In this document: positions 52,555 to 56,925 of the stretch, piece after piece
Numbering within the stretch: position 1 is the stretch's first letter
How the letters are laid out: each line of letters opens with the position of its first letter
Virus record (IMG/VR): IMGVR_UViG_3300042286_000208
Coordinates: 6,287 to 70,286 of that record
Strand: one strand, 5' to 3'
Length of the DNA stretch: 64,000 nucleotides
Source: a virus
Taxonomy: Duplodnaviria > Heunggongvirae > Uroviricota > Caudoviricetes
Made by a program: the position numbers and the translations under genes
Notes under the pieces: generated by a model
What the model was told of the DNA's origin: nothing
Databases searched by the model: none
The model's input: only the letters and a program-made list of their open reading frames with translations

Positions 52555-53493
52555 GTGGGTAAAAAGATTCCAATCACCCCAAATTTTAATATACTAATTG
52601 ATTCACAAAACTTACTGAGATTAGACGATGAATTAAAAAAAATAAACACATATGTCGAGGAAAAACCTTTGGGTGATAGAATGAAAGAATACGAATCACT
52701 TACTCGATTTAAACTATCCAAAGAATATCCGATGATCATACGTCTTGACGGTAACGCATTCCATACCTTTACAAGAGGATTTGAGAAACCATTTGATAAA
52801 ATACTGAGAGAAGCAATGGAAGAAACAGCAAAGTTTCTATTAGAAAACATCCCAGGATCTCAATGTGCTTATCATCAATCAGATGAAATATCAATATTAG
52901 TAACAAACTATCAACTTAGCAATAGAGAACCTTGGTTTGATAACAATATTAATAAAATTGTTTCCATAACTTCATCCATGGCAACTTTAGCCTTCAATAG
53001 ATCTTTTCTAAAGAAGATTAAGGAAAGAATCGGTATTGTTGATTACAACGAAGCAAGAATATATGCCGAAGACAGTTTTGTAGCAAAAATGGATGCGATC
53101 GAGAATGGAGCTCTATTTGACTCAAGAGTGTTTATTTTACCAAAAGACGAAGTGGTTAATTACTTCATTTGGAGACAACAGGACGCGATCAAAAATTCAA
53201 TCTCTATGGTGGCTCAATCACTATTTAGTCACAAATCACTTCAGGGCTTAAATGGTCCACAAATGATTAAAAGAATGAAAGATGAAAAAGGTATCGACTA
53301 TGATAAAAAATATACCGTCATCGAAAGAAGAGGCAGTATTACTCATAGATTAAAACCGATGGAACAGACCAAAGTTATAAGAATGAAAAACGGTATAGAA
53401 AAAGAAATAAGATTTACAAGATCTAATTGGGGTATAGATGATAATATTCCAGTGTTTAAGGACGAAAGAGACTATATCGAAAAATTTATTTAA
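52555..53493 (+). CDS. thg1: tRNA(His) guanylyltransferase / Thg1-like 3'-5' polymerase
   Basis: RLDGNAFHTFT, QSDEIS, FDSRV, YFIWRQQDAIKNSISM. Confidence 0.92.
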   Translation: MGKKIPITPNFNILIDSQNLLRLDDELKKINTYVEEKPLGDRMKEYESLTRFKLSKEYPMIIRLDGNAFHTFTRGFEKPFDKILREAMEETAKFLLENIPGSQCAYHQSDEISILVTNYQLSNREPWFDNNINKIVSITSSMATLAFNRSFLKKIKERIGIVDYNEARIYAEDSFVAKMDAIENGALFDSRVFILPKDEVVNYFIWRQQDAIKNSISMVAQSLFSHKSLQGLNGPQMIKRMKDEKGIDYDKKYTVIERRGSITHRLKPMEQTKVIRMKNGIEKEIRFTRSNWGIDDNIPVFKDERDYIEKFI

Positions 53494-53520: not shown

Positions 53521-53660
53521 CTCTTGATTAATTCAAGAAATGTTATGAAATATAACATTTAAAATAGGGCGAAGATATGCGGCGTCCTTGAATCGAGGAC
53601 GCCCAGCTCCGATGTTATAATAATGTGCCGCGCCGGTCGCGATCATTATTATAACATTAA
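53521..53660. repeat. Cluster of four inverted repeats with GC-rich cores
   Basis: TCTTGA/TCAAGA, AAATGTTAT/ATAACATTT, GGCGTCCT/AGGACGCC, ATGTTATAATAATG/CATTATTATAACAT. Confidence 0.8.
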
Positions 53661-53741: not shown

Positions 53742-53757
53742 TGAATAATTAATTATA
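53742..53757 (+). promoter_or_regulatory. Putative late promoter motif
   Basis: Exact 16-mer. Confidence 0.75.
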
Positions 53758-53784: not shown

Positions 53785-54669
53785 ATGAGAAAACTGACTA
53801 CTGATGAATTTGTGTTAAGAGCAAAAGATGTACACAATGATCTTTATACATACACCAAAACAACATATATAAATACATCTACTAAGTGTATTATTACATG
53901 CAAAAAACATGGTGACTTTATACAAACACCCAGAAATCATCTTCAGGGACAGGGATGTCCTGTGTGTGAAAAAAAAAGAAGGAAGAGCTGAAATAAAGAT
54001 AAGATCATTGAAAAAAATGTTTACATTGATAGAGTTAAAGATTCATGTGAGATTAATAACCTTAAATTTATTGAACTATCTAAAAAAAATAAATGGGGAG
54101 CCATAGTTCAGTGTAATAAGTGTGGTTATAAATATGACGTTTATTCATATGATATAGATAGATTTGGATGCCCTAAGTGTGCAAACAAAAGAAGATCTGA
54201 ATTTCAAAAAAGAACGGGATTATGAAAGAAAAATTTGAAAACAAATGGTGAATTCAAACACTTACTGGCATCGAGGACACAATATGAGGGATTGGAATAT
54301 AAAAGGTCTTCGTATGAAGATGATATATATAATTATGTTTCTTTATTTGTTGGTGAAGAGATTATATTGATCAATGACAGAAGTGTTTTATATCCATATG
54401 AGTTAGATATTTATTTACCTAATTTAAAAATTGCTTTAGAGTTCAACGGAACCTATTGACACAATAAGGATGTTTGAGAAGAATATAAATCTAAAGAAAA
54501 TTGCGAATATGACCAATGTAGAGAACAATACAAGTATTTAGAATGCAAAAAAAGAGACATAAAATTAATACATGTATGAGAAGATGATTGGTTGAAGGAT
54601 AGTGACAGTATTCTTAAAAATATAAAAAAGGAGATAATTTATGCCAGAGAAAAAAACATCAGAGGCTAG
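53785..54669 (+). CDS. Free-standing Zn-ribbon + DUF559/PD-(D/E)xK-like endonuclease (5 TGA=Trp)
   Basis: CKKHGDF, CPVC, CNKC, CPKC; YELDIY...ALEFNGTY(TGA)H and LIHV(TGA)EDDW. Confidence 0.8.
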
Positions 54670-56879
54670 AACTGTTAAGAAAACCTCTAGTAATACTAAG
54701 ACAGTAACAAAAAAAACACAAGTAAAACCTTCTAGTGTTAAAAAAAGTATCACTCCCAAAACAAAAGGTTCAGTCTCATCGTCAAAAAAAACAAAGACAC
54801 AAACTGGAAATAAGAATGGAGGTTTAAGATCCTCAGCTATGAAAACAGGCAAAGACCTAATCATAGTTGAGTCTCCCTAACAAGGTTAAAACTATTTCAA
54901 AAATATTAGGTAATAAATTTAATGTTATGGCATCTGCCGGACATGTTATGAGAATTGCAGACAAAGGTTATAAAAACTTAGGTATTAATGTTCAAGATGG
55001 AACTTTTGATATTTCTTATGATAAAATCACTGGAAAGTCAGATATCATCAGAAATCTTAAGCTATCAGTTCAGGATGCAAATGTTGTATATCTTGCAAGT
55101 GACTTAGACCGCGAGGGAGAGTTAATAGCTAAGACATTAAAAGATACATTAAAACTAAAAGAAGGAAAATACAGACGTATAACCTTTAACGAAATCACAG
55201 AAAAAGCAATATTAGAAGCCATAGAAAATCCAAGAGGCATCGACTACCAATTGGTTGATGCGGCTGAGTCAAGAGGTATTGAAGACAAAGTTATTGGTTA
55301 TCTTCTCTCTGGTATAGCAAGAAGAAATGTCGGTGCTCCTTCTGTAGGTAGAGTTCAATCAGCAAGTTTAATCATTGTATGCGAAAGAGAAAATGAAATA
55401 AATAACTTCATACCCAAGAAGTATTATGAAATATTTATACAAATAATTAAAGATGGGAAACCATTCTTAGCAAAATATGTCGGTACTATTGACAAGAAAA
55501 ATAAAGAACTAAATGACGAAGATTTAGTAAAATCTATTATTGAAGCTTGTAGACTTAGTAACGAATATGTTGTAATGGAAAAATCAACAAAACCTAAGAA
55601 AATTGCTCCACCTAAACCTTTAATCACTACATCAATGCAAACAGAAGCAAGTTCTAAACTAGGATTGAATCCAAGTGAAACTATGTCATTAGCTCAACAA
55701 CTATTTGAGGGGCCTAACGTGACTGGTATCACACACGGTTTAATTACTTATATTAGAACTGATAAAGCTGAATATAGTGAAGAATTTGGTAAAGAAGCAG
55801 AATCTTTTATCATTCATAGCTTCGGTCGAGAATTCCTCGGTAACTCAAAAGATATAAAGGCTAAAAAGGTAGAGGGTGCTCAAGAAGCTCATGAGGGGAT
55901 ACATCCGACTGATCTATCGATAACACCTGATTTCTTGAAAGGTAAAGTCCCTAATGATTTATATAGACTTTATAAAATGATTTATGATCGATCTATTGCT
56001 TCATATATGAAAGAGAAAGAACTGGCTTCTACCACAATGCTGATCAATAATTTATCTCATGTGTTTAAATACAATTACTCAGAGTTAGTTTTTGAAGGCT
56101 TCTCTAAAATGTATGAATCTGCTAAAGATGATGACGACGATGAAGAAGAAGTTATTGACAGACTAGATTTAAATGAAGGTGATAAAGTCGATGTTAAAGA
56201 CATATATTCTGTATTGAAAGAGACTAAACCACCAAAAAGATTTACAGAAGCCGGTCTAATTAAGAAACTTGAGTCATCAGGTATTGGTAGACCTTCCACC
56301 TATTCATCAACAATGAAAACATTAAAGGATAGAAACTATACAGAGATCAATCAAAGAACAATAAGACCTACTGTTCTAGGGATGAAGTTATATGATTTCC
56401 TTAATAAAAACTTCAGTGAAATCATAAACGTAGAATATACTTCCAATATGGAATCTGACCTCGATGCTATAGCCAAGGGTGAAGTTAAAAAACTAGATGT
56501 ATTGAAACCATTCTACGAAAACATAACTAATAACATTTCATCTTTTAATAAAGAAAATAAAGACAATAAACCAGCTGATGAACCAGTTGGAAGAAAATGT
56601 CCTGATTGTGGAGAAGAGCTAATATATAAAGTTAGTGCAAAAGGTACTAGATTTATTGGTTGTTCGGGATATCCTAAATGTAAACATGTTGAGTGGATAA
56701 ACAATGTGGACAAATCAGTTAAATGTCCGGAGTGTGATAATGGATACATAGTCCCAAAAACATATACAGACAAAACAACAAAAAAGAAAAAAACTATGTA
56801 TGCTTGTTCAGCATATCCAAACTGCACACATATCATGGAAGAAAAAACATACAAAGAACTAAAATCGAAGTCTGAATAA
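54641..56879 (+). CDS. topA: DNA topoisomerase IA with basic N-terminal extension; +1 frameshift at CCC-TAA 54875-54880
   Basis: LIIVESP|NKVKTI TOPRIM motif split across frames; DLDREGE, SVGRVQS, ITYIRTD, QEAHEGIHP, GIGRPSTY, C-terminal Zn ribbons. Confidence 0.9.
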
Positions 56880-56909
56880 GACTTCTTTTTTTGTTTTGAG
56901 TGTAACCAT

Positions 56910-56925
56910 TGAATAATTAATTATA
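56910..56925 (+). promoter_or_regulatory. Putative late promoter motif
   Basis: Exact 16-mer. Confidence 0.75.

Follow-up and report, generated by a model that had tools for sequence, protein, structure and literature searches.

The topA gene of this giant phage raises the question of how a full-length topoisomerase can be made from a coding sequence that is split just past the TOPRIM glutamate. The gene lies in a 134,286 bp virus record that is 47% complete, and positions given here are those of the window, the whole stretch of 64,000 nucleotides that was analysed. At 54869-54881 the sequence reads GAG TCT CCC TAA C, preceded by the codons ATC ATA GTT, with CCC at 54875-77 and TAA at 54878-80. 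The frame 0 ORF (54641..54880, plus strand) has a Shine-Dalgarno sequence, AAGGAG (54628..54633, plus strand), 7 nt ahead of its ATG at 54641. It encodes 79 amino acids, comprising a tail rich in Lys, Ser and Thr (18 K, 13 S and 13 T) and the first TOPRIM strand, ends in DLIIVESP, and includes the codon of the catalytic Glu77 (54869-71). By Pfam matches and motifs, the frame +1 ORF (54879..56879, plus strand) encodes the rest of TOPRIM, the topoisomerase core and two zinc ribbons; it goes on as NKVKTI up to the TAA at 56877-79, with no second lesion.

Reading CCCT as a single proline yields a stop-free TopA of 745 amino acids, and the claim of the preliminary description that topA needs a +1 shift at CCC-TAA within TOPRIM is borne out by this product. 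The shifted protein passes the cut-off of the NCBIfam model topA_bact (TIGR01051; 592 vs 456 bits), matches the Pfam domains Toprim, Topoisom_bac and Zn_ribbon_Top1, and aligns without gaps over IVESPNKVK with 14 relatives. It resembles bacterial TopA in its TOPRIM, core, zinc ribbons and all catalytic motifs (E77, D154 and D156 of the DxD motif, and Y370); the model score, the TOPRIM glutamate, the DxD motif and the catalytic tyrosine come together in the shifted product only. No second topA was found in the 47%-complete record.

Translation without any shift would have the downstream protein start at TTG 54867 or ATG 54927 and act alone or be completed in trans by the 79-aa piece. The +1 frame has the TTG four codons before the stop, gene callers give a 650-aa product, and the arrangement can be likened to genes-in-pieces split by homing nucleases. 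However, no properly spaced Shine-Dalgarno sequence was found before TTG 54867, ATG 54927 or ATG 54948, so that the frame +1 ORF is without a usable start of its own, and the TTG lies within a predicted hairpin. Products begun at any of the three codons would be without the TOPRIM glutamate, loss of which abolishes both cleavage and relaxation (PMC7587558). Both products of this rival lack Glu77 and the first TOPRIM strand, and the break falls inside a folded domain. We consider such a separate start improbable.

The CCC-TAA break in topA is a real feature and did not arise in assembly. Ten public contigs are recorded with the 79-aa product, and all eight that were inspected (JGI 3300042275/77/85 and Logan runs SRR35183610, SRR35175266, SRR35195352, SRR35175284 and SRR35183620) carry the extra base. 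These contigs are 99.95-100% identical to the window and come from two assembly pipelines, JGI and Logan. The preliminary description had held an assembly error to be equally possible. The runs may stem from one study, but an assembly or sequencing error is hardly credible given the same base in separate JGI and Logan assemblies, the lack of a long homopolymer and the error-free neighbours; the ~20 genes neighbouring topA are all whole. Because the carriers are one clone, they prove the extra base and not its conservation.

Protein, pattern and locus searches found no diverged strain that keeps CCC-TAA. The exact split pattern had no matches in viral contigs and three chance matches in GTDB genomes, all outside any topA; the 79-aa peptide used as a query retrieved only itself, and pattern searches with the tail and the hairpin gave either nothing or unrelated matches. 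No frame switch in topA was seen at ~135 more distant loci. The fragmented members P0124 and P0137 were rejected as split alleles, since they belong to an indel-ridden assembly (ERZ1645045) and their site is intact. The collections searched held no strains between ~90% and 99.9% identity to this lineage, IMG/VR gave no close relatives, and the neighbour proteins of topA gave no sister-strain clusters. Our literature search found no report of a frameshifted topA.

The 14 TopA clusters of the relatives, which are 66-90% identical, are all single uninterrupted ORFs. DNA of seven relatives reads CCA, CCT or CCC and then AAY at the site, with the extra base in none of the seven. Retention of CCC-TAA by relatives, raised by the preliminary description as a check, thus holds for the same-clone contigs and fails for the diverged relatives, and since the latter are without the extra base the split is not a conserved signal of the family. 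A Lys/Thr-rich N-terminal tail is fused to KDLIIVESPNKVK or a near variant in 13 of the 14 relative clusters. The 79-aa peptide, which had been taken for a separate histone-like peptide, is therefore the normal TopA tail, carried fused to TopA in most close relatives (P0001-P0013). This tail evolves fast in the clade (window 54641-54860; P0001-P0013), and the TopAs of P0014 and P0016 are without it. A lysine-rich tail is also found in Streptomyces TopA, where C-terminal lysine repeats give processivity (PMC5714199); the tail of the phage clade is N-terminal, and in this phage, unlike Streptomyces, it is the part made without shifting.

The branch leading to this topA is long (dS ~1.5) and has a dN/dS of 0.035, which limits any non-functional period to at most ~1% of the branch. 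Were the extra base instead a private mutation that arose very recently in one clone, with topA dead or leaking only 1-2% and the hairpin either accidental or older and unrelated, it would have to fall within that last 1%, against strong purifying selection on TopA in every relative examined. A recent null would nevertheless leave dN/dS unchanged, the carriers are all 99.95-100% identical, and all 14 relatives are intact. Such a mutation may also be tolerated, as a phage whose host supplies topoisomerase may have no need of its own topA, and its origin could be a one-base scar of repair due to the adjacent nuclease. We regard this explanation as a serious possibility that falls short of probable.

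The shift site (54872..54881, plus strand) places UCU in the E site, CCC in the P site and UAA in the A site, followed by C, with +1 re-pairing on CCU. CCC is a rare proline codon in this phage (7%) and CCT a common one (42%). As in programmed +1 shifting at CCC-stop, a P-site CCC, an A-site stop and a +1 codon for the same amino acid are present, and the whole product is under purifying selection and has no start of its own for its second part; the site is not kept in diverged relatives, all 14 of which are uninterrupted. Of 6,697 possible single-base insertions in topA, 13 give CCC-stop with exact rescue, a weighted chance of 0.3-0.6% of single-base insertions, and any same-tRNA slip at a stop would arise in 1-3%. 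No other CCC-stop junction was found in the record, and the lack of a second such site in the genome speaks for a private mutation. Four other stop/+1 junctions were inspected and rejected as ordinary gene boundaries.

Removal of the extra base at the RNA level, by transcriptional slippage or editing, would give the same 745-aa protein, and the phage has its own RNA polymerases. However, the run is only CCC, transcriptional slippage usually needs long A/T runs, and a stop right after CCC fits a ribosomal shifty stop; we consider RNA-level correction very improbable.

The Listeria phage genes named as a precedent in the preliminary description do show that shifting at CCC-stop is known, but the Listeria tail genes use CCC-UGA, and SPP1 gp17.1 and phage Q54, which have CCC-UAA, are closer (PMC3082878). 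SPP1 gp17.1/gp17.1* shares with topA the rare P-site CCC, the A-site UAA and re-pairing on the common CCU, and its CCC-UAA gives ~25% shifted product (PMC6316719). The SPP1 shift is conserved, lies at the end of the gene and adds an optional domain, whereas the topA site, seen in one clone, lies at codon 79 in the catalytic domain, where a shift would gate the whole enzyme. At a CCC-stop by itself, no more than 2% shifting is usual (PMC3082878), and hence a stimulator would be needed.

A candidate +1 stimulator is a predicted 11-bp RNA hairpin (54832..54871, plus strand) with arms at 54832-42 and 54861-71 and one G-U pair; its stem closes on the very base that precedes the E-site codon. The preliminary description had missed this hairpin, which adds support to its claim of a shift. 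Further pairing, of GGAGG (54818-22) with UCUCC (54872-76), could carry it on into the codons of the E and P sites, and the predicted energy is -15.2 kcal for the core and -20.0 kcal with the extension (z -3.1). The hairpin is the strongest 65-nt window of topA (synonymous-shuffle p 0.0013), and its 11-bp stem is unique in the 11.9 kb of coding DNA scanned. As strong a hairpin closing at the E site is found for 0.05-0.1% of 1,990 background codons. Downstream of the site no 3' stimulator was predicted (z -0.2), and the hairpin is absent from all six intact relatives examined. Hairpins that refold next to the E site promote +1 shifting in yeast, and also on 70S ribosomes in the absence of RF2, in imitation of the prfB Shine-Dalgarno duplex (PMC3639245, PMC6321510), an engineered upstream hairpin reaching ~60% of the Shine-Dalgarno level of stimulation in the latter system; the predicted geometry at topA matches that upstream hairpin (PMC6321510). 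The cases of hairpin-driven +1 shifting that we found in the literature are engineered reporters only.

The private mutation would thus need two coincidences at one codon, a CCC-stop with exact rescue (0.3-0.6%) and the strongest hairpin at the E site (~0.1%, or perhaps 1% if other acceptable stimulators are allowed for). The rarity of the CCC-stop rescue, the hairpin at the E site and the lack of decay together favour a translated shift; the tests of function were chosen after the data had been seen, and when discounted about tenfold they still favour it.

The relative L006 bears on the age of the stem. Its topA switches ancestry at codons 74-75 (recombination break, p 8e-6), and it shares the tail of this phage, with synonymous divergence far lower there than in the remainder of topA. 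The L006 5' arm fully complements the 3' arm of this phage, the single A/G difference still pairing as G-U, which weakly suggests a stem that predates any possible null; the comparison amounts to one G-U change, not covariation, and concerns a hairpin that was found post hoc by prediction. The mosaic patch of L006 (3977-4225, ~250 bp from the Shine-Dalgarno sequence to codon 74) is common with this phage, and the locus is otherwise L001-like. Both L006 and L211 have IICESP in place of IIVESP. An origin of the extra base by template switching at the inverted repeat was rejected, as the flank is not the templated sequence. At window 54818-54841 the predicted hairpin hides a strong internal Shine-Dalgarno sequence (GGAGGT) and, 16 nt further on, the in-frame ATG of M67, at which the tail-less TopAs begin; the hairpin could also repress internal initiation at M67.

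Together these observations make it rather more probable than otherwise that full-length TopA is made by a selected, hairpin-stimulated +1 ribosomal frameshift. After initiation at 54641, ribosomes would open the hairpin on their way to CCC, where UAA occupies the A site. Slow termination would let the hairpin refold behind the ribosome against the E-site codon, perhaps invading it, and the refolded hairpin would act as the Shine-Dalgarno duplex does in prfB while the peptidyl-tRNA-Pro re-pairs on CCU. We infer that a minority of ribosomes would slip in this way and make the 745-aa enzyme, and that the rest would release the 79-aa tail. Like prfB (RF2), topA has a short frame 0 ORF, a shifty codon with a stop, and a duplex whose end lies three bases ahead of the P codon; unlike in prfB, the duplex is a predicted mRNA hairpin and not Shine-Dalgarno:anti-Shine-Dalgarno pairing. 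The hexamer at the Shine-Dalgarno position is GUUGAG, and because the site is CCC-UAA and not CUU-UGA it is not an RF2-specific sensor.

Both RF1 and RF2 recognise UAA. Release-factor levels, invoked by the preliminary description, may possibly influence the shift; no release factor gene was found in the 47%-complete record, in which one tRNA (Met) was found, and some TGA-recoded phages encode RF1 (bioRxiv 10.1101/2021.08.26.457843). Use of TGA as Trp raises the coding cover of the record to 82% vs 69%. A Mollicute host, suggested by this usage, was rejected and late code switching preferred, as TGA is absent from the helicase, Thg1 and topA and present behind the repeated word TGAATAATTAATTA; the three genes checked behind that word hold TGA codons. 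Near topA lie a tRNA-His guanylyltransferase (Thg1) and a weak match to peptidyl-tRNA hydrolase 2 (window 52555-53493; L016 6374-6688).

Directly upstream of topA is a gene for a free-standing, homing-endonuclease-like protein of 294 aa (53785..54669, plus strand), which overlaps the start of topA by 29 nt and is intact only if TGA is read as Trp (five in-frame TGA). It matches PHROG 559 (HNH endonuclease, E 1e-33) and PHROG 3339 (homing endonuclease, E 8e-22), and its C-terminal part gives a weak REase_MTES_1575 match. Elsewhere the genome encodes another, distantly related nuclease of this family (26% identity; G000:C1 100465-101379, minus strand). The nuclease gene is preceded by TGAATAATTAATTA (53742..53755, plus strand), a candidate promoter whose late function we infer; the genome has 23 copies with at most one mismatch, the next one after topA at 56910. 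An intrinsic-terminator-like hairpin with a T run (56867..56892, plus strand) closes the nuclease-topA stretch, and the promoter word, nuclease, topA and terminator look like one unit.

Compared with relatives whose DNA is available, this lineage is alone in having the nuclease and the late word directly upstream of topA. The others carry different genes there; in L001, L006, L099, L157 and L158 TGAATAATTAATTA occurs only after topA or far upstream. A nuclease beside topA was not found in any relative, nor at 46 loci of nuclease homologues, all distant. L099 (GCA_900198705.1, a 1.26-Mb contig) has its related phage segment at the contig end beside unrelated genes, possibly through chimeric assembly or integration. 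GC-rich hairpins lie in the Thg1-nuclease gap (window 53575-53660), and L001 and L006 have related ones with stems changed but, by eye, still paired; they are possibly a small structured RNA or a terminator. A second repeated word, TTATATATTATAA, occurs 19 times when up to one mismatch is allowed, for the most part in intergenic positions (window 13321, 30654, 42850, 45143, 51641, 62272, 64743 and others), is also found in relatives, and is a candidate early or middle promoter.

The newly arrived nuclease appears to be the likeliest reason why the extra base was kept. The shift site is ~210 bp from the end of the nuclease gene, at a conserved motif with a recombination break, and free-standing nucleases cut hundreds of bases from their own genes (PMC2988022). 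The extra base might destroy a site in topA that the nuclease would otherwise cut, just as the bypass insert in T4 does with the target of MobA. Alternatively it might serve dosage or timing: with late transcription reading into topA and with translational coupling, more TopA would be made, and the shift would hold its level down.

In T4 relatives the MobA nuclease precedes topoisomerase gene 60, in which a bypass insert that starts with a stop blocks self-nicking (Bonocora et al. 2011, as described in bioRxiv 10.1101/2022.08.31.505936 and PMC5009743). The likeness extends to a free-standing nuclease upstream of and overlapping a topoisomerase gene, an early insertion that brings an in-frame stop to be passed, and RNA structure on the 5' side; in the phage studied here the enzyme is type IA and not type II, and the event is a one-nucleotide insertion with a +1 shift versus a 50-nt hop. 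The nuclease stands beside the split gene and is absent from the intact alleles, as in the mobA/gene 60 type; that type, however, has a coding gap of 50 nt between matching take-off and landing codons, in place of which topA has a one-base insertion. By its homologues the nuclease is DUF723/Vsr-like and not MobA. We tentatively suggest, as an idea that may well prove wrong, that a one-base insertion protects topA from the nuclease and is corrected by a natural hairpin-stimulated +1 shift, a minimal and independent counterpart of T4 mobA/gene 60 whose output may change at the late TGA=Trp switch. In its proposed mechanism the topA split thus resembles SPP1, in its geometry prfB, and in its origin possibly mobA/gene 60; because the site is not conserved in diverged relatives, it is a proven member of none.

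If the break is a recent mutation, topA is an ordinary broken gene. If the shift is true, a type IA topoisomerase joins the enzymes gated by +1 frameshifting, and the locus would let refolding hairpins be studied as mimics of Shine-Dalgarno pairing in a natural setting, on bacterial ribosomes. If the link to the nuclease is also true, the locus would show the birth of recoding signals by the route proposed for T4 gene 60, in which a nuclease selects for a very small insertion in a conserved motif of the active site and the damage is made good in translation.
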